Made by a program: the position numbers and the translations under genes. Shown here piece after piece: positions 21,881-31,070 of a stretch of 64,000 bases of DNA. The notes under the pieces are model-generated. The model worked only from the letters and a program-made list of their open reading frames with translations. It searched no databases and was not told the origin of the DNA. The number at the start of each line of letters is the position of its first letter. Within the stretch, counting starts at the first letter, position 1. The DNA is from a virus (taxonomy: Duplodnaviria; Heunggongvirae; Uroviricota; Caudoviricetes): the IMG/VR virus record IMGVR_UViG_2568526312_000010; one strand, written 5' to 3'.

Positions 21881-22306
21881 TCAATGCACGACAACAGCAT
21901 TACCAGGCTGACCCCCACTGTTAGTCAGGGTGCCCCAGGCGATCGCCGCTGCGACAAAATCATCCACATCTTTCACCAGCCGATCCCTCCGTTCGACGAT
22001 CTCACGGTAATATTCAGAGCTGTGACTGCGCATACGGGCCACCAGCAGAGGCGGCATTGCCTTTTCGATCGCCGGTAACAGAGCCTGCATTTTTTCAACT
22101 GCATCAGGGGTGTCTTTCTCTATCCAGCGGAAAATTTTCTGGGTATTGCGAGCCAGGGCTTCCGGATGGCTGTCGTCGTACAGTTCAGGAAACGTCATAC
22201 CCAACTCAAAATAAGCCTGGGTTATTCCAGCTGCCGGAACTTTTTCGCCATCAGGACGCGCCCAGGCATTCATCGCCATGCGGATGTGTTCATGCTTGAT
22301 TTTCAT
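21881..22306 (-). CDS. YdaT-like protein in the cII position
   Basis: internal start MKIKHEHIRMAMN...; family from memory of Rac ydaT, not certain. Confidence 0.45.
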   Translation of the reverse strand: MKIKHEHIRMAMNAWARPDGEKVPAAGITQAYFELGMTFPELYDDSHPEALARNTQKIFRWIEKDTPDAVEKMQALLPAIEKAMPPLLVARMRSHSSEYYREIVERRDRLVKDVDDFVAAAIAWGTLTNSGGQPGNAVVVH

Positions 22307-22532
22307 GAATCCCCCCTTGGTTAGAAGGCGGATTATGATCAGAATCGGGAATGACAACCGTCGGTATGTGTAACTCATATTTGAGCGCCCCGGCAGTGAC
22401 TGCCTGAATTAGCAACGCCCATTTCCACGGAACGTCTTCCCCCCACATGCTGACTGTGGTTTTTGACGTTCCTAGAGCGGCGGCTGTTTTAACAACTCCG
22501 CCAAAATAGCCTAATACTTCTGATTTTTTCAT
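22290..22532 (-). CDS. Cro-like repressor (DicC-like)
   Basis: VLGYFGGVVKTAAALGTSKTTVSMW...GALKYE resembles recalled DicC; divergent from the cI-like gene. Confidence 0.55.
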   Translation of the reverse strand: MKKSEVLGYFGGVVKTAAALGTSKTTVSMWGEDVPWKWALLIQAVTAGALKYELHIPTVVIPDSDHNPPSNQGGIHENQA

Positions 22533-22623
22533 GAGTCGCTCCATAAAACTGAACGCCAAAAGTTTAATAATCAAAACCAAAGAAAGTCAAGAAACAAAAC
22601 CATCTGTGTTTTAAAATCAAAAC
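22533..22623. promoter_or_regulatory. cro/cI divergent promoter-operator region
   Basis: two similar motifs TTTAATAATCAAAAC and TTTAAAATCAAAAC between the divergent starts. Confidence 0.45.
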
Positions 22624-23262
22624 ATGAACAAGCAAACAATATCTGAACGCATAACCCAACGTATGCATGCGCTAAACTTGAAAGGCAAAGACCTTGTCAA
22701 TGCCACTGGCGCATCAAAAGGCTCCGTAAGTCAATGGATGAACGGTGGAGGAGCGCCGTCCTCGCGTTACATAAGTTCACTGGCAAAGATATTGAAAGTA
22801 AACGAAAATTGGCTTCTTAATGGAGGAGAGTTAAATACAGGTGATTCGCTTGATCTATCTTTACCGCCGATAAAAACGGTTCCGCTACTATCACTTCAGC
22901 AGGCAGCAAGCTGGAGTGATTATATGAAAAATTCCTCAATAACCTCTTGTGTGCAGCTTGTCGGAGAAATCCCGGCCAATACCTTTGCTGTTGTTCTAGA
23001 GAGTGACAGTATGTCGACATCTGGTGGTGGAGTTTCCATCCCAAATGGTTCAACAGTTTTTGTTGATCCCGATCGAATCGTACAACCAGGAAATATTGTC
23101 CTTGCCTTACCCAAAGGGACCACAACGCCTGTCATTCGCAAACTGGAGATAGAAGGGCCGGATATTCTTTTAGTCCCCACGAATCCTCGCTACCCTTCAA
23201 TTATGCTGGATGATCTATCTTGCATATTGGGAGTATGCTTTAAAATTCAACAAGATATTTAA
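22624..23262 (+). CDS. CI-like repressor (HTH_XRE plus LexA-like S24 peptidase domain)
   Basis: N-terminal HTH (ISERITQRMHALNLKGKDLVNATGASKGSVSQWMNG); C-terminal DSM...IRKL serine/lysine dyad. Confidence 0.85.
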   Translation: MNKQTISERITQRMHALNLKGKDLVNATGASKGSVSQWMNGGGAPSSRYISSLAKILKVNENWLLNGGELNTGDSLDLSLPPIKTVPLLSLQQAASWSDYMKNSSITSCVQLVGEIPANTFAVVLESDSMSTSGGGVSIPNGSTVFVDPDRIVQPGNIVLALPKGTTTPVIRKLEIEGPDILLVPTNPRYPSIMLDDLSCILGVCFKIQQDI

Positions 23263-23325: not shown

Positions 23326-23375
23326 AAATGTTTTGATAAAAAAACATTGACCTTAAATGTTCGTTTTTCTAAACT
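23326..23375 (+). promoter_or_regulatory. candidate early-left promoter with overlapping inverted repeat
   Basis: TTGACC (23346) and TAAACT (23370) with 18-bp spacer; AAAATGTTTT..AAAACATT inverted repeat overlaps the -35. Confidence 0.35.
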
Positions 23376-23554: not shown

Positions 23555-23707
23555 ATGGATACGCTCAATCTTGGCAACAACGAATCTCTGGTATGTGGCG
23601 TGTTCCCCAACCAGGACGGTACGTTCACCGCGATGACGTATACCAAAAGCAAAACGTTTAAAACTGAAGCTGGCGCGCGTCGCTGGTTAGCCAGAAACAC
23701 TGACTGA
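23555..23707 (+). CDS. small protein (about 50 aa), possibly YdfA/DUF1391-like
   Basis: internal start MDTLNLGNNE with GAGG RBS; stop overlaps next start (TGATGA). Confidence 0.35.
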   Translation: MDTLNLGNNESLVCGVFPNQDGTFTAMTYTKSKTFKTEAGARRWLARNTD

Positions 23708-24357
23708 TGAGGTTGACGATGGAATTTAAAGATTTACCTCCTTCAATCCAGGAGATTGCAGCACACACACTTCGTCATCGTCTGAACGAACTTGAATTGG
23801 AATCGGTAACGAAAAAAGACACTGATAATATGGCTCGTAATGTGCGCGATGCGTTTACCGGATTGTATTTCTGTGCGTCTATAAATAAACACGACTCAGA
23901 GAGTGTGGCAAATAAAATTGCAGAAACGACAGCGCAAAACATCAATACGAAACCAACGGAAGAAGAAATTGATCAGTTTGCTCATGATGCTGGTTTAAAA
24001 AACAAGAAAGAAAAATCGCCATATGCGGGGAACATGTTTGTTTATGACAATCTCATCAGAATTCGTGGCGAAATTCCGGCGGAATACCTGGCAAGAGTCC
24101 ATCAGGCATTGCTTAAAAATTTGGAAACAGAATTATTTGATGGCAACACTAACGGTTTCTTCATGGTATCAGGCCTTGAGAAAGACTGGGATGCAGAAAA
24201 ACGCTGGAATGTTGCTACATGGTTATTCAGTAACAGAGCCGCTGCACTGGAAGCTTCGGCATGTATTTGCGGCCTGTTCTTAACAGACCACAAATATAAT
24301 CTGGATGTGTACAGTTATATTTACGCTGAACACGGTCCACTCTGGATTGACTGGTAA
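23707..24357 (+). CDS. hypothetical 216-aa protein, no recognisable family
   Basis: ORF directly downstream of cI on the same strand; AT-richer than neighbours; alternative start at 23719. Confidence 0.5.
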   Translation: MRLTMEFKDLPPSIQEIAAHTLRHRLNELELESVTKKDTDNMARNVRDAFTGLYFCASINKHDSESVANKIAETTAQNINTKPTEEEIDQFAHDAGLKNKKEKSPYAGNMFVYDNLIRIRGEIPAEYLARVHQALLKNLETELFDGNTNGFFMVSGLEKDWDAEKRWNVATWLFSNRAAALEASACICGLFLTDHKYNLDVYSYIYAEHGPLWIDW

Positions 24358-24567
24358 TTATAAGGAAACACCAGCAGGGCCGCGGCGACCAACAGAACGA
24401 TTAAAATCAATAATGCCATTATAAAGGACATTATTTAATTTATCGTCGAATGCTGATTCTGTGAGCCTCAACTCTGAATGAGTTTTTAATAACCCTGATT
24501 GCCTGAGTTGATTTACCAGGCATTCAATCTGTTTTTCAATAAGCGGATTTCTTTTTTTGTTTGGCAT
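24358..24567 (-). CDS. hypothetical 69-aa protein, convergent with the 216-aa gene
   Basis: GGAGG 5 nt upstream of ATG (MPNKKRNPLIEKQIECLV...); stop codons of the two genes abut at 24357/24358. Confidence 0.4.
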   Translation of the reverse strand: MPNKKRNPLIEKQIECLVNQLRQSGLLKTHSELRLTESAFDDKLNNVLYNGIIDFNRSVGRRGPAGVSL

Positions 24568-24904
24568 TTTATCCTCCATTGAGGTTCTGGGTTAAAAATG
24601 GAGACCAACACGCTGTCACGTGTGGTCGTGCGCCGGACACGGATAAGAATCCGGTACTGACAGTTTACTGAAAGGATATTTCCCTGAAAAGTCAGTGCAT
24701 AACGCGAAAGCGTACGGCGAAGCTCTTTCCCTTAGAAGGCTTGTCGTTAGATTTCTTCGAACGTGCGCTTCCGGTTGTGGCACTCCGCGAAATGGCGCGG
24801 CGGTAAGTATGGCGGGGTTATTCCTTCCCCATTGAGGACACCGGGTTGTCAGGTTGACCATACGCTTAAGTGACAACCCCGCTGCAACGCCCTCTGTTAT
24901 CAAT

Positions 24905-24962
24905 TTTCTGGTGACGTTTGGCGGTATCAGTTTTACTCCGTGGCTGCTCTGCCGCCCTTTTT
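24905..24962 (+). ncRNA. dicF: DicF small RNA
   Basis: tttctggtgacgtttggcggtatcagttttactccgtggctgctctgccgcccttttt matches recalled DicF with one mismatch; terminator hairpin plus U-tract; upstream of dicB. Confidence 0.8.
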
Positions 24963-25131
24963 AAAGTGAATTTTGTGATGCGGTGAATGCGGCTAAGCGC
25001 ACGCGGAACAGTTAAAACCAAAAACAGTGTTATGGGTGGATTCTCTGTATCCGGCGTTAATTGTTAACTGGTTAACGTCACCTGGAGGCACCAGGCACTG
25101 CATCACAAAATTCATTGTTGAGGACGCGATA

Positions 25132-25320
25132 ATGGAAACGTTATTACCAAACGTTAATACGTCTGAAGGTTGTTTTGATATTGGTGTTCTGCTCAGTAAC
25201 CGGGAGTTTACTGAAGATGCCATTAACATGAGGAAATATGAGCCTTATCTGCTCAATGATAATTCCATACTTTCCCGAATTGCTCTTCTTGAACTTGGTA
25301 TTTTCGGAGAACGTCAATGA
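25132..25320 (+). CDS. dicB: cell-division inhibitor DicB-like
   Basis: METLLPNVNTSEGCFDIGV...TEDAIN matches recalled DicB N-terminus; GAGGA RBS; follows dicF. Confidence 0.7.
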   Translation: METLLPNVNTSEGCFDIGVLLSNREFTEDAINMRKYEPYLLNDNSILSRIALLELGIFGERQ

Positions 25321-25505
25321 CTTCAGCATTTGCACTGATGATGACGGTTTTTCTTATAACGGGTGAATCACAGAATGTGATTACCGGAATTTATGCCAGT
25401 AAAGAATCCTGCCTCCAGGCAAGAGACGAGCAAAAAATTTCTGGTGAATGCCTCCCGGTAAAAAAAGTATCGCTGTACCTGAATAACGAAACACCGGCTG
25501 GATAA
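25317..25505 (+). CDS. YdfD-like small protein with hydrophobic N-terminus
   Basis: 62 aa, MTSAFALMMTVFLITG signal-like segment, two Cys; start overlaps dicB stop (ATGA). Confidence 0.5.
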   Translation: MTSAFALMMTVFLITGESQNVITGIYASKESCLQARDEQKISGECLPVKKVSLYLNNETPAG

Positions 25506-25597: not shown

Positions 25598-26842
25598 ATG
25601 AGCACTGATAAAGAAGAATTTGCGCTATATTGCGAAGCAAAAAATGACAAAGTCAGAAAACGTCTGGGAATTAAAGGTGGTTTTTACTGGACTACAGCAA
25701 AAAAATTATCTGTTGCCATCTCCCGCTGCATTACCGCAATGGATGACAACGATTATGATGAAGACGACTTTAAAAAACCCGTTCGCGTCCATTTACCCGT
25801 TGTGAATGACCTTCCACCTGAAGGCGTGTTTGATACCGAATTCTGCAACCGATACGAAAAAGGCGGGGAAGATGGCATTACAATGGTATTTATCGCGCCC
25901 TCTCCCTCCGTGCAGGAGAAACCAGCCAGTACTGACAATACCAACGTCAACGGCGAAGACATGACGGAGATTGAGGAGAATATGCTCCTGCCGGTTTCTG
26001 GTCAGGAGCTGCCCATTCGCTGGCTTGCGCAACACGGCAGCGAAAAACCAGTAACGCACGTTGCACGGGAAGAACTTCAGGCATTACATATAGCACGGGC
26101 GGAAGAACTGCCGGCTGTTACTGCCCTGGCCATTTCTCACAAAACAAAGCTGCTCGACCCGCTGGAGATTCGCGACCTTCACAAACTGGTACGCGACACT
26201 GACAAAGTTTTCCCTAATCCCGGTAATTCAGACCTGGGACTGATAACTGCTTTTTTCGAGGCATACCTGGACGCTGACTACACTGATCGGGGTCTGCTGA
26301 CAAAAGAGTGGATGAAAGGAAATCGTGTTTCGCGTATCACCCGTACGGCTTCCGGTGCAAATGCCGGTGGCGGGAACAAAACCGATCGCAATCCGAATTT
26401 AGTACACACCTTCGATACGCTGGATGTGGAGATTGCAGCAGCCACACTTCCGATGGATTTTAATATTTATGAAATTCCGGGCAGCGTTTATCGTCGCGCA
26501 AAAGAAATCGTCCTGAAAAGAGAAAGTCCGTTCAAAGAATGGTCCGCAGCACTTCGCGCAACCCCGGGTATTCTGGACTATTCCCGCGCCGCTATTTTTG
26601 CACTTATCCGGAGCGCTCACCCTGAGTTTTATCACTACCCGGGACGCCTTCAGGGGTATATCAACGCCTACTTAACGGAGACTGATCACGAGAACCCCAG
26701 CAAGGAAACTCTCACTGCTGCACGACATACACCGGAAAAAGATATCCTGGAAGAAGTTAACCGCGAACTGTCTGCTAAGCAGGAAACAGAAGAAGAAAAT
26801 GATGAAGAAAAACCGCAACCATCTTGCGCAATGGCAGAATGA
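25598..26842 (+). CDS. hypothetical 414-aa protein (YdfE position), acidic C-terminus
   Basis: long ORF with no recognisable motif; between ydfD-like gene and truncated integrase. Confidence 0.5.
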   Translation: MSTDKEEFALYCEAKNDKVRKRLGIKGGFYWTTAKKLSVAISRCITAMDDNDYDEDDFKKPVRVHLPVVNDLPPEGVFDTEFCNRYEKGGEDGITMVFIAPSPSVQEKPASTDNTNVNGEDMTEIEENMLLPVSGQELPIRWLAQHGSEKPVTHVAREELQALHIARAEELPAVTALAISHKTKLLDPLEIRDLHKLVRDTDKVFPNPGNSDLGLITAFFEAYLDADYTDRGLLTKEWMKGNRVSRITRTASGANAGGGNKTDRNPNLVHTFDTLDVEIAAATLPMDFNIYEIPGSVYRRAKEIVLKRESPFKEWSAALRATPGILDYSRAAIFALIRSAHPEFYHYPGRLQGYINAYLTETDHENPSKETLTAARHTPEKDILEEVNRELSAKQETEEENDEEKPQPSCAMAE

Positions 26843-27375
26843 TAATCAGAAGAAATCTGGCAAAAGACCGTTTTACAGTACCAAAAACACAGGCGGGAAC
26901 CAATCGTGTGATTCACCTTATTAAGCCCGCAATCGACGCTCTCCGGAGTCAGATGGCACTAACGAGACTGAGCAAAGAGCATATCATCGATGTTCACCTC
27001 AGAGAATTCGGCAGAACAGAGAAACAAAAATGTACCTTTGTTTTTCAACCTGAAGTGTCAGCGAAAGTAAAAAATTATGGCGACCATTTTACCGTTGACT
27101 CAATAAGGCAGATGTGGGACGCAGCGGTAAAGCGTGCCGGAATCCGCCATCGCAAATCGTATCAGTCGAGACACACTTATGCCTGCTGGTCGTTAACAGC
27201 AGGAGCTAACCCGGCATTCATTGCAAACCAGATGGGCCATGCAGATGCGCAAATGGTGTTTCAGGTGTACGGGAAATGGATGTCAGAAAATAATAATGCG
27301 CAGGTAACGCTGTTAAATACACAGTTAAGCGAGTTTGCCCCAACCATGCCCCATAACGAAGCGATGAAAAGTTAA
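26824..27375 (+). pseudogene. tyrosine integrase, C-terminal catalytic fragment only
   Basis: 183 aa with H-x-x-R and Y (SRHTYACWSL...GHADAQMVFQVYGKWM) but no N-terminal domain or box-I Arg region. Confidence 0.7.
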
Positions 27376-27795: not shown

Positions 27796-27844
27796 TTAAC
27801 GAGTAAAATCGACCCTGTACACGATTCTGTGTAAATGCCTTTTC

Positions 27845-28665
27845 TCAGAAGTGACCGTCCAGGCGGTCACCGAACTCGATAATAAAGCGGCTCATTGCCA
27901 TACGCCAGTCCCGCAGTGGCATCGTCCATTTCTGTGAAGCCGCCTGGATTGCCAGCCACACGACCTTTTTCACTGAGTCATCCGTCGGGAACACCTTGCG
28001 TTTTTTGATGGCATGCCGGATTACGCTGTTCAGCGACTCGATGGCGTTGGTTGTGTAGATGACTTTGCGGATATCTGCCGGGTAAGCGAAGAACATCGCC
28101 AGGTTGGTCCAGTTTGCCTGCCAGCTCCGGCTTATCTGCGGGTAGCGACTGTCCCAGGCGCTGGCGAACGCTTCCAGCGCCTGCTGGCCTGCTTCTTCTG
28201 TGGGGGCCTGGTAGATGGCTTTCAGGTCGCGGGTGACGGCTTTGTAGTCCTTCCAGGAAACGAACCGCAGGCTGTTGCGCACCATATGCACGATGCACAG
28301 CTGGATGCGGGCTTCCGGATACACCGTGTTGATAGCGTCCGGGAAGCCTTTCAGCCCGTCGACACAGGCTATGAGAATATCGTTCAGGCCGCGGTTTTTT
28401 AGTTCAGTCAGCACATTGAGCCAGAACTTCGCTCCCTCGTTTTCGGCCAGCCACATACCCAGTAACTCTTTCTGGCCTTCGATATTGATACCCAGTGCGA
28501 GGAATACGGATTTATTGATTACGCGACTGTCCTGCCGAACCTTCAGGACAATACAGTCAAGATAAACAATGGGATAGACCGCATCCAGTGGCCGGTTTTG
28601 CCATTCGACTACCTGCTCCATAACGGCATCGGTGACCTTCGATACCAGCGCCGGTGAGACATCAG
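27845..28665 (-). pseudogene. IS256-family transposase, C-terminal fragment
   Basis: mutator-type transposase body; reading frame continues from the N-terminal fragment at 31109-31503 once the nested IS is removed. Confidence 0.75.
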
Positions 28666-28757
28666 GTAAGCGTACAGCCTGAACCGTCTGGTCAGAATCT
28701 GACGAATTAGACAAAGTGGTGTCCACCAAATAAGTAGTGGGAACCAAAGTATCAGAT

Positions 28758-29138
28758 ATGCAGAAAAATGTGACTCCCGGCAGGCGAAAAGGCTGCCCTA
28801 ATTATCCTCCCGAATTTAAACAGCAGCTCGTTGCTGCCTCCTGTGAACCCGGGATATCCATCTCAAAACTTGCTCTTGAAAATGGCATTAACGCCAATCT
28901 GTTGTTCAAATGGCGACAACAATGGCGCGAGGGAAAGCTGCTATTACCTTCTTCAGAGAGCCCCCAGCTACTTCCTGTGACTCTCGATGCAGCTGCCGAA
29001 CAGCCAGAATCGCTCGCAGAGGACCCGGAAACCCTCAGTATCAGCTGTGAGGTAACGTTCCGGCACGGGACGCTCCGCTTCAATGGCAATGTCAGCGAAA
29101 AGCTCCTGACTCTGCTGATACAGGAACTGAAGCGATGA
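28758..29138 (+). CDS. IS66-family TnpA (orf1)
   Basis: first ORF of the three-gene IS66 unit. Confidence 0.7.
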   Translation: MQKNVTPGRRKGCPNYPPEFKQQLVAASCEPGISISKLALENGINANLLFKWRQQWREGKLLLPSSESPQLLPVTLDAAAEQPESLAEDPETLSISCEVTFRHGTLRFNGNVSEKLLTLLIQELKR

Positions 29139-29482
29139 TCCCGTTACCTTCCGGGACCAAAATTTGGCTGGTTGCCGGTATCACCGATATGAGAAATGGC
29201 TTCAACGGCCTGGCTGCGAAAGTACAAACGGCGCTGAAAGACGATCCCATGTCCGGCCATGTTTTCATTTTCCGGGGCCGCAGCGGCAGTCAGGTTAAAC
29301 TGCTGTGGTCCACCGGTGACGGACTGTGCCTCCTGACCAAACGGCTGGAGCGTGGGCGCTTCGCCTGGCCGTCAGCCCGTGATGGCAAAGTGTTCCTTAC
29401 GCAGGCGCAGCTGGCGATGCTGCTGGAAGGTATCGACTGGCGACAGCCTAAGCGGCTGCTGACCTCCCTGACCATGCTGTAA
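29135..29482 (+). CDS. IS66-family TnpB (orf2)
   Basis: 115 aa, overlapping start, typical middle ORF. Confidence 0.75.
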
Positions 29483-29531
29483 ATCTCTTTATCCTGGTTG
29501 TCACAGAATAAGCCCGGTAAAATACGGGCTT

Positions 29532-31070
29532 ATGAACGACATCTCTTCTGACGACATCTTCCTGCTGAAACAGCGCCTGGCCGAACAGGAAGCGCTGATC
29601 CACGCCCTGCAGGAAAAGCTGAGCAACCGGGAGCGCGAAATAGACCATCTGCAGGCGCAGCTGGATAAACTCCGCCGGATGAACTTCGGCAGTCGTTCCG
29701 AAAAAGTCTCCCGCCGTATCGCACAAATGGAAGCCGATCTGAACCGGCTTCAGAAAGAGAGCGATACGCTGACTGGTAGGGTGTATGACCCGGCAGTACA
29801 GCGTCCGTTGCGTCAGACCCGCACCCGTAAGCCGTTCCCTGAATCACTACCCCGTGACGAAAAGCGACTGTTGCCTGCGGCGCCGTGCTGCCCGAACTGC
29901 GGCGGTTCACTGAGCTATCTGGGCGAGGATACCGCCGAACAGCTGGAGTTGATGCGTAGCGCCTTCCGGGTTATCCGGACGGTACGGGAAAAACATGCCT
30001 GTACTCAGTGCGATGCCATCGTGCAGGCACCTGCACCTTCGCGGCCCATCGAGCGGGGTATCGCCGGACCGGGGCTGCTGGCCCGCGTGCTGACCTCGAA
30101 GTATGCAGAGCACACCCCGCTGTATCGCCAGTCAGAAATATACGGCCGGCAAGGTGTGGAGCTGAGGCGTTCACTGCTGTCGGGCTGGGTGGATGCATGC
30201 TGCCGGCTGCTGTCTCCGCTGGAAGAGGCGCTTCATGGCTATGTCATGACTGACGGCAAACTCCATGCCGATGATACCCCGGTCCAGGTACTGCTGCCGG
30301 GTAATAAGAAGACGAAGACCGGGCGGTTGTGGGCGTATGTTCGTGATGACCGCAATGCAGGGTCAGCGTTGGCACCTGCAGTGTGGTTCGCTTACAGCCC
30401 GGACAGAAAAGGCATCCATCCGCAGACTCATCTTGCCTGCTTCAGCGGTGTGCTGCAAGCGGATGCGTACGCCGGGTTCAACGAGCTGTATCGCAATGGT
30501 GGGATAACGGAAGCTGCCTGCTGGGCTCATGCCCGCCGAAAGATCCACGATGTGCACGTCCGCATCCCGTCAGCACTGACGGAAGAAGCCCTGGAGCAGA
30601 TCGGTCAGTTGTACGCCATAGAGGCGGATATAAGGGGAATGCCGGCAGAGCAGCGGCTTGCTGAACGTCAGCGAAAAACGAAACCGTTGTTGAAATCCCT
30701 GGAAAGCTGGTTGCGTGAAAAGATGAAGACCCTGTCGCGACACTCAGAGTTGGCGAAGGCGTTCGCGTACGCACTTAACCAGTGGCCGGCACTGACGTAC
30801 TATGCGAACGATGGCTGGGTGGAAATCGACAACAACATCGCTGAAAATGCCCTGCGGGCGGTCAGTCTGGGTCGTAAAAACTTCCTGTTCTTCGGCTCTG
30901 ATCATGGTGGTGAGCGGGGAGCGCTACTGTACAGCCTGATCGGGACGTGCAAACTGAATGACGTGGATCCAGAAAGCTACCTTCGCCATGTGCTTGGCGT
31001 CATAGCAGACTGGCCGGTCAACCGGGTCAGCGAACTGCTTCCGTGGCGCATAGCACTGCCAGCTGAATAA
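29532..31070 (+). CDS. IS66-family transposase TnpC (orf3)
   Basis: 512 aa with N-terminal coiled-coil/leucine zipper and Cys cluster (CCPNCGG...CTQC). Confidence 0.85.

Follow-up and report, generated by a model that had tools for sequence, protein, structure and literature searches.

The stretch of DNA analysed here, 64,000 nucleotides (nt) of the Caudoviricetes record IMGVR_UViG_2568526312_000010 (the window), carries two convergent genes, here called X and y, close to the immunity repressor gene of a lambdoid prophage. X (23719-24357, + strand) encodes a protein of 212 amino acids (aa) and y (24358-24567, - strand) one of 69 aa. Comparison with related prophages identifies the cassette as one allele (X1/y0) of a hypervariable convergent two-gene locus, and gene order places it within a Qin-type dicBF operon, ydfA-X-(y)-DicF-dicB-ydfD. 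We tentatively favor the reading that the C-terminal domain of X and y are cognate partners, effector and modulator, and that this pair is linked to the lysis-lysogeny switch. A first-pass annotation of the window had described the convergent genes and assigned them to the slot in which lambda carries rexAB; the anatomy stands, while the slot assignment does not.

A hypervariable locus with strictly paired genes

Around 200 related loci were compared, and a scan of IMG/VR with the hairpin that directly precedes y, on the strand of y, gave 116 loci. Across these 116, the + strand gene usually begins with an N-terminal domain of ~55 aa (MEFKDLP...) and continues into one of at least eight unrelated C-terminal parts, for total lengths of 52, 61, 101/122, 112, 124, 129, 133, 186 or 212 aa. 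The - strand gene always has the same ribosome site (GGAGGATAAA-ATG), followed by one of at least ten unrelated bodies of 57 to 112 aa. The classes of X and y correspond strictly 1:1. The window's pair, X of 212 aa with y of 69 aa, is found in 18 loci (and in four more with a frameshifted y), X of 112 aa with y of 64 aa in 14, and X of 129/186 aa with a zinc-ribbon-like y of 61/80 aa in six, while the commonest X allele, of 124 aa (31 of the 116 loci), has no y. This is the pattern of a polymorphic locus, in which a conserved N-terminal part is joined to unrelated C-domains, each strictly tied to its own small neighbor. Charge complementarity between the X and y alleles shows no consistent pattern.

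Against all eight other alleles compared, the right edge of the variable DNA coincides with the ATG of y (24556-24568), and the left edge falls within the X N-domain (23741-23926). N-domain alleles recombine independently of the X C-domain. The stop codons of X and y abut at 24357/24358, as the first-pass annotation had it, and the spacing is likewise zero in 71 of 86 related loci (71 of ~80 when Escherichia loci are counted); in other alleles the 3' ends overlap by 4 to ~130 nt.

Comparing the slot across related prophages, as that annotation had proposed, thus gives different cargo at the same position, with X and y mutually linked. Among 5426 complete E. coli genomes, the C-terminal half of X and y are each present in exactly 597 (11%; at least 80% coverage) and the pair co-occurs, and in nearly all of the 86 loci a y gene follows the X C-domain on the - strand. 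The linkage also extends to two remote relatives of the X C-domain (31-39% identity), which match over the C-domain only and carry a different N-domain. Both are found immediately after cox, in Salmonella-type prophages that also carry an integrase and a C-type repressor. A convergent small gene overlaps their 3' ends by 11 or 53 nt and encodes a y homologue (46-52% identity) that includes the C-terminal tail RRGPAGVxL. By this comparison two prophage architectures have kept the X C-domain together with y, each time close to the promoter of the early lytic operon.

A predicted operator-bearing early promoter upstream of X

A promoter scan places an OL/PL-equivalent, dicBp-like promoter on the + strand between the repressor gene and ydfA (23347-23375; -35 TTGACC at 23347-23352, a 17-nt spacer and -10 TAAACT at 23370-23375). 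The operator palindrome TGTTTTGATAAAAAAACA (23329-23346) abuts its -35 element. An OR-type operator-like palindrome, TGTTTTAAAATCAAAACA (22607-22624; repeat family D1, no strand assigned), lies in the cro/cI intergenic region, and these two are the only perfect copies of TGTTTT-N6-AAAACA in the 64-kilobase (kb) window. The promoter with its repressor-type operator is present at the level of sequence, and its repression is predicted. Sequence common to prophages of other immunity types starts at ~23389, right after the predicted start site of this promoter, and downstream of the immunity repressor gene ydfA, DicF, dicB and ydfD follow in the same orientation, which is the content of a Qin-type dicBF operon. 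In K-12, ydfABC-dicF-dicB-ydfD form one operon transcribed from dicBp, a lambda PL-like promoter that DicA represses (PMC10448788, PMC5069750).

Because the operator-bearing promoter separates the repressor gene from ydfA-X, X is placed in a repressed PL-type operon, and we predict an early, derepression-induced gene rather than one expressed in the lysogen. The equation with the rexAB slot of lambda does not hold, as the cassette lies downstream of an operator-bearing PL/dicBp-type promoter with y on the opposite strand. Lysogen expression, which the first-pass annotation associated with genes at this position, is not predicted for X and is plausible only for y, from the opposite strand and its own operator-free promoter-like site. 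Its statement that Qin carries ydfB/ydfC at this position is borne out, with both genes lying between ydfA and the pre-dicF region in K-12. In STEC306 and RM10740, an intact X-y pair is located after ydfB and/or a ydfC-like gene; the cassette is therefore an addition to the slot and no strict replacement. The cassette was also said to be richer in A+T than its flanks. This is so relative to ydfA and the pre-dicF region, as the G+C fraction is 0.408 for the cassette (23699-24626), 0.503 for ydfA and 0.523 for 24627-24905, but not relative to the immunity genes (0.44-0.45), than which the cassette is called no lower.

Gene X

X can also be read from an earlier ATG as the 216-aa open reading frame (ORF) of the first-pass annotation (23707-24357, + strand). 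The true start is likely the ATG at 23719, because a GAGG ribosome site lies upstream of it, all homologues and phrog_2151 begin with MEFKDLP, and the protein called by the Prokaryotic Genome Annotation Pipeline (PGAP), WP_000394548.1, starts there. X matches phrog_2151 (1.9e-147), and its N-domain also matches phrog_1363, phrog_9419, phrog_6937 and phrog_33007. The protein is laid out as an N-terminal helical domain of the MEFKDLP family (~aa 1-60), a linker and an allele-specific alpha/beta C-domain (~aa 98-212; 24010-24357). AlphaFold2 models X with a predicted local distance difference test score (pLDDT) of 71, as an N-terminal three-helix unit and a C-domain of beta-beta-alpha-beta-beta-alpha-beta order. 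X is acidic (isoelectric point, pI, 5.2) and soluble, with a maximum 19-residue hydropathy of 1.16. Its C-domain has a ratio of nonsynonymous to synonymous substitution rates (dN/dS) of 0.16-0.20 with a median of 0.20 (203 pairs), which indicates purifying selection.

The family of X is very small: when 1.84 billion representative proteins were searched exhaustively with HMMER, only 35 matched, all of them fragments, N-domain relatives or the two remote C-domain relatives. The N-domain is homologous to early-left ORFs of Shiga toxin (Stx) phages, and those ORFs are themselves of unknown function. Homology to ordinary early phage genes, which the first-pass annotation held would count against an exclusion or defense role, is thus found in part, in the N-domain. 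X was also considered as a protease and this was rejected, the Cys and His residues of X not being kept in the remote homologues.

Gene y

The product of y matches phrog_4274 (1.4e-51) and is basic (pI 9.7) and soluble, with a maximum 19-residue hydropathy of 0.22. As the first-pass annotation described, the gene is convergent with X and has a GGAGG-type ribosome site; the sequence GGAGGA (24577-24572) lies four bases before the ATG. The AlphaFold2 model is of low confidence (pLDDT 60), with two helices and a disordered tail, and is too uncertain for a fold search. The C-terminal tail, RRGPAGVxL, is conserved. The median dN/dS is 0.23 (142 pairs), again indicating purifying selection, and in the other frames across the y region, taken from one comparison with locus L004, it exceeds 1 in four of five and is 0.49 in the fifth. 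X and y are both genuine coding genes.

A copy of y is at times lost while X remains intact, being deleted in three loci (L080, L083 and L089) and frameshifted in 4 of 22 X1 loci. Since y is repeatedly deleted or frameshifted with X intact and N-domains still exchanged, X has a function of its own and y is dispensable. The three deletions (window 24404-24565) are a clean loss of y codons 1-54 in which the last 46 nt of y and the leader are retained, and the X of these loci is intact, with 211 aa ending in WIDWFKG. Many X proteins of this kind are present in the protein database (e.g., P0063, 110 members), suggesting that a lineage without y has been successful.

Promoter-like site and structured leader of y

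A promoter-like site for y lies on the - strand at 24662-24690 (-35 TTTTCA at 24690-24685, 17 nt, and -10 TAAACT at 24667-24662), and the predicted transcript start, ~24655, is the first base of hairpin 1 of the y leader. The consensus promoter scan missed this site because just 8 of 12 positions match. The scan site on the - strand at 24595-24566 was rejected as the y promoter, as it covers the start codon of y itself. In each of six unrelated types of upstream sequence, a -10-like hexamer precedes hairpin 1 by 5-9 nt; TTGAGA-17-GATAAT is the best of these sites. The scan of the window for perfect TGTTTT-N6-AAAACA gives no operator palindrome near the y promoter, and no LexA box was seen by eye upstream of y.

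The leader itself (24568-24654, - strand) is conserved and structured, as judged from RNAalifold on an alignment of 19 distinct leaders that precede more than ten unrelated cargo genes. It consists of hairpin 1 (24654-24633), CGCAC, hairpin 2 (24627-24603) and CUCCAU (24602-24597), the last of which pairs with an AUGGAG that overlaps the ribosome site GGAGGA. RNAalifold gives three helices, of which hairpin 1 and the CUCCAU:AUGGAG helix are invariant, while hairpin 2 has compensatory changes in six of its seven pairs. The ~88 nt before the y ATG are conserved ahead of all cargo alleles and are also found in E. albertii, Edwardsiella, Pluralibacter and Salmonella-type contigs; a search of Rfam matched no family to the leader. 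From this conservation it looks like an undescribed cargo-expression platform with gated translation.

In Edwardsiella ictaluri, E. anguillarum and a contig labeled Chryseobacterium (L207, L208 and L210), the leader precedes a proline-rich short ORF and a 156-aa protein that has two predicted membrane segments and no match in Pfam or PADLOC. The Chryseobacterium label is probably contamination or misassignment. In L208, the proline-rich ORF and the 156-aa gene are convergent with a CI-type repressor gene. In K-12 Qin (L002 3603-3650, equivalent to window 24627-24690), a promoter-like site of the y type and hairpin 1 remain, on the strand antisense to the spacer between ydfC and dicF; hairpin 2, the y ribosome site and the minus-strand cargo gene have been lost. 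This remnant promoter might fire an antisense transcript into ydfC.

Searches for function and comparison with known systems

The first-pass annotation could assign no motif to X and pointed to profile and structure-based searches for both proteins; these leave X and y uncharacterized, with no ordinary named phage early function assigned to either. Searches of X, y and ydfA against Pfam, NCBIfam, PADLOC and PHROGs gave no function for X or y, which match function-unknown PHROGs only. PADLOC-DB v2 had no match for X, y or ydfA at E-values up to 1 and nothing of note for 14 alternative allele proteins. Sequence searches of the PDB returned nothing below E 0.28, no fold match assigns a function to X or y, and a genome-collection scan with the X C-domain found nothing. 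Homology to a known defense system was found for none of X, y or the alternative alleles. Alternative alleles of either gene had no match in Pfam or PADLOC, apart from y4 (94 aa), which reaches the cut-off of the Pfam family GhoS (PF11080; 21.2 bits against a cut-off of 21, E 2.8e-4), a marginal match that was not confirmed against solved-structure sequences. Alleles y4 and y9 (L124, L107, L126 and L210) both belong to phrog_8894. A relationship of the y family to the y5/y8 alleles, suggested by a similar-looking L..AGK motif, was rejected by hhalign. Literature searches with WP_000394548, WP_001133037, Ybl81 and the PHROG numbers gave no match, and no paper on this locus was found; a paper on the prophage small RNA svsR proved unrelated to it.

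The closest positional counterpart is the ydfB-ydfC slot of K-12 Qin. It lies at the same position, from ydfA to the pre-dicF region, with flanks of 88% and 93% DNA identity, and behind a dicBp/PL-type promoter repressed by the immunity repressor (PMC10448788), and no function is known for ydfB and ydfC either. The two K-12 proteins show no sequence relationship to X and y, and both are encoded on the + strand. The likeness to lambda rexA-rexB is that of an accessory two-gene unit adjoining the immunity repressor and variable among phages, though on the repressor's strand for X only. In lambda, rexAB lies between cI and OL/PL and is transcribed together with cI in the lysogen, RexB being a membrane protein. 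X and y differ in lying downstream of an operator-bearing promoter, in being convergent and soluble, and in having no homology to RexA or RexB; neither such homology nor a membrane RexB-like partner was detected by Pfam, PADLOC or hydropathy. A SieB-type exclusion gene is likewise not indicated, with no Pfam match and both proteins soluble, and a type II toxin-antitoxin system does not fit genes that converge on abutting stops and match no Pfam or NCBIfam family.

Convergence as such has precedents. In lambda cII/oop and in RalR/RalA of Rac, a type I toxin-antitoxin system, a short unit converges with a promoter-proximal early gene and overlaps its 3' end, an arrangement from which mutual interference of the two RNAs is predicted. 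The oop and RalA transcripts are non-coding RNAs, whereas y is protein-coding, with purifying selection, a conserved ribosome site and more than ten alternative bodies. The polymorphism recalls the contact-dependent inhibition (CDI) proteins CdiA-CT/CdiI and the Rhs-CT/immunity pairs, in which a conserved N-terminal part carries swappable unrelated C-domains, each strictly tied to a small neighboring gene. CDI and Rhs toxins are large and secreted and have a co-directional immunity gene, whereas X and y are small, cytoplasmic and convergent, and profile searches detected no known toxin or immunity domain in the X and y alleles. With "moron" genes such as lambda bor, y shares its own promoter-like site antisense to the lytic operon and a leader that carries different cargo across prophages and genera. 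It differs in being tightly paired with the 3' half of a sense early gene and in having a conserved structured leader that can mask the ribosome site, neither of which, to our knowledge, is known for bor-type morons. The marginal match of y4 to GhoS, a type V antitoxin, is a hint of antitoxin-like proteins in the slot, though the match belongs to y4 and not to the window's y, which is unrelated to the y5 and y8 alleles tested. Lambdoid early operons are already known to contain variable accessory slots and convergent antisense units (oop, RalA). What is new here is that a swappable C-domain is strictly paired with a convergent protein gene that is itself swappable, and that a dedicated conserved leader is present.

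A proposed link to the lysis-lysogeny switch

From this arrangement we infer the expression states of the two genes, and any physical or functional antagonism or phenotype, as follows. X would share the transcript of ydfA, DicF and dicB, which starts at the early promoter under repressor control, and would be made on derepression only. y would be made from the opposite strand, from its own operator-free promoter-like site, and the CUCCAU of its leader could mask the ribosome site. Because the abutting stops leave no space for a terminator, the two transcription units are expected to run into each other, and this convergent, terminator-less arrangement predicts overlapping, complementary X and y RNAs. 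For dicF and dicB to be reached, transcription of the early operon has to pass through y. One would therefore expect either gene to be expressed only when the other is not, y while the operon is silent, in the lysogen, and X when it fires. X would then be an early effector against the host or a competing phage, and y, which is dispensable, its matched antagonist or modulator, a buffer against early transcription that is leaky or spontaneous.

Several points weigh against this proposal and keep it tentative. Both promoters are consensus-level predictions, with only 8 of 12 positions matched in the case of y. No clear terminator follows the repressor gene, so that some read-through into ydfA-X in the lysogen is possible. 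The 1:1 linkage could be explained by proximity between conserved recombination flanks alone, and the frequent loss of y with X intact means that y is no essential antidote.

Alternatively, X and y may have no protein partnership and be independent accessory genes, co-swapped through the conserved outer flanks (the X N-domain and the y leader), with y acting mainly in cis, its convergent transcription or antisense RNA damping read-through into the toxic dicF-dicB genes. The boundaries of the variable region do coincide with conserved flanks, the abutting or overlapping 3' ends leave no space for a terminator, and the commonest allele (124 aa, 31 of 116 loci) is without any y. Also in its favor, both DicF and DicB are toxic, and in a K-12 strain deleted for dicBF ~1% of cells show spontaneous firing of dicBp (PMC10448788). 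Selection on y as a protein (dN/dS 0.23) and the presence of more than ten distinct conserved protein bodies, which interference alone does not need, argue against it, as does the y homologue that goes with the X C-domain in another prophage type, where X has a different N-domain and no DicF was found in the flanking sequence searched. We regard this explanation as rather unlikely. The lack of a clear intrinsic terminator after the repressor gene would suit a rexAB-like exclusion or abortive-infection cassette, with both genes expressed in the lysogen from the slot next to the repressor and protecting against superinfecting phages. Such a cassette would fit variable cargo that adjoins the immunity region, is richer in A+T than its immediate flanks and has no homology to a named early function, and the dicBF operon itself can reportedly protect against phage, through DicB. 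It is made quite improbable by the operator-bearing promoter between the repressor gene and ydfA-X, which puts X in a repressed PL-type operon, by genes that are convergent and not co-transcribed, by the absence of membrane segments and of RexA/RexB, SieB or PADLOC matches, and by the occurrence of the X N-domain family in early-left regions of Stx phages.

The roles could also be reversed, y being the lysogen effector (exclusion, defense or another lysogenic conversion) and the allele-matched X C-domain its early antidote on induction. An operator-free promoter-like site and a conserved expression platform for y would suit this, and in other genera the platform drives other cargo, including the 156-aa protein with two membrane segments that is convergent with a repressor gene. 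X lies close to the early-operon promoter in both types of prophage, its pairing with y is 1:1, and loss of y is frequent, as it can be for genes whose expression in the lysogen is costly. This remains unlikely in our view, as X stays intact and exchanges N-domain alleles in y-less lineages, which implies a function independent of y, while y has no match to any defense model and its ribosome site appears masked by default. Very improbable, finally, is that both genes are decaying, functionless remnants. The prophage is defective (truncated RecE, an integrase fragment, insertion sequences) and several y copies are frameshifted or deleted, but selection on both genes is purifying, 11% of complete E. 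coli genomes have intact copies, and the pair is kept at 31-52% protein identity across prophage types, some of them with full-length RecE, excisionase and integrase.

Prophage setting and neighboring genes

The window is 100% identical to E. coli O157:H7 and O121 chromosomes, and the region is a defective Qin-like lambdoid prophage. Its immunity region has a Cro-like gene (22290-22580, - strand) upstream of the repressor gene (22624-23262, + strand), which encodes a CI/LexA-type repressor of 212 aa with helix-turn-helix (HTH) and S24 domains (Pfam Peptidase_S24 8e-13, HTH_3; phrog_4, transcriptional repressor). This agrees with the CI-like repressor that the first-pass annotation placed upstream of X on the same strand, and the small YdfA-like ORF that it placed between the two is a ydfA homologue (23555-23707, + strand), the first gene of the early operon (DUF1391, PF07151, 102 bits; 88% DNA identity with K-12 ydfA). 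In identical sequence, PGAP/RefSeq calls the C-terminal 112 aa of the repressor alone (S24, WP_001416688.1), although the ORF is uninterrupted over 212 aa. Stand-alone S24-only ORFs of 110-121 aa occur in related prophages (e.g., L090, L138 and L158), and in L090 the S24-only ORF adjoins a separate HTH protein.

Downstream of the cassette lies the pre-dicF structured untranslated region (24628-24905, + strand), which is common to K-12 Qin and whose left end overlaps the y promoter and hairpin 1. It has a folding z of ~-2.3 on both strands. From this region through dicB (24627-25236), the window is 93% identical to K-12 Qin, and 24698-24891 is 81% identical to the Cox-type Salmonella prophages (L007 7180-7378; L008 7181-7371). 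In L008, what follows the pre-dicF-like region is not DicF but an isrK-like RNA (48 bits, just below the gathering score) together with a C4 antisense RNA (74 bits). Judging from these sequences, the pre-dicF region may be a shared processing or leader module for small RNAs of the early operon. The DicF small RNA (24906-24957, + strand; RF00039, 75 bits, gathering score 48), dicB (25132-25320, + strand; Pfam DicB, 123 bits) and the DUF1482/ydfD homologue (25317-25505, + strand; Pfam DUF1482, 56 bits) follow, the last two also annotated in RefSeq. A sub-threshold Rfam match to STnc100 (24955-25164, + strand; 34.7 bits, gathering score 47) covers the DicF-dicB spacer and the start of dicB.

The defects of the prophage (25598-27375 and, by correspondence with L001, ~27800-31000) include RecE truncated to 414 aa and a C-terminal fragment of the integrase. 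By the same correspondence, an IS256-family transposase is interrupted by an IS66/ISEc8 element. Just beyond are nleG7, which encodes a type III effector, and a DinI-like gene, and a Hok/Gef gene is found upstream of the replication genes.

Implications

The exact pair is present in about one in nine complete E. coli genomes, including O157:H7, O121, O145 and O111 pathogens, and many more genomes carry other alleles at the same position, beside DicF and DicB, regulators that affect cell division, metabolism, virulence and phage resistance. Even if X and y are merely linked accessory genes, the map is corrected, as the slot belongs to a repressed early operon and not to a lysogen-expressed immunity transcript. 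If they are cognate effector/antagonist pairs tied to the switch, they would be a new source of genes of inter-phage or phage-host conflict and would explain the hypervariability of the position. The promoter and structured leader would then form a compact conserved platform for cargo genes in the prophages of several enterobacterial genera. A wider possibility, doubtful at present though worth stating, is an undescribed class of prophage module. A module of this class would carry, within the early operon's first kilobase, a head-on pair of cytoplasmic effector and cognate partner from a polymorphic family; a dedicated, conserved leader with gated translation would serve to express the partner in the lysogen, and the effector would be made on derepression. 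Through such a module, the state of the lysis-lysogeny switch would be linked to a conflict function (inter-phage competition, exclusion or addiction), and an arms race would drive its allele diversity.

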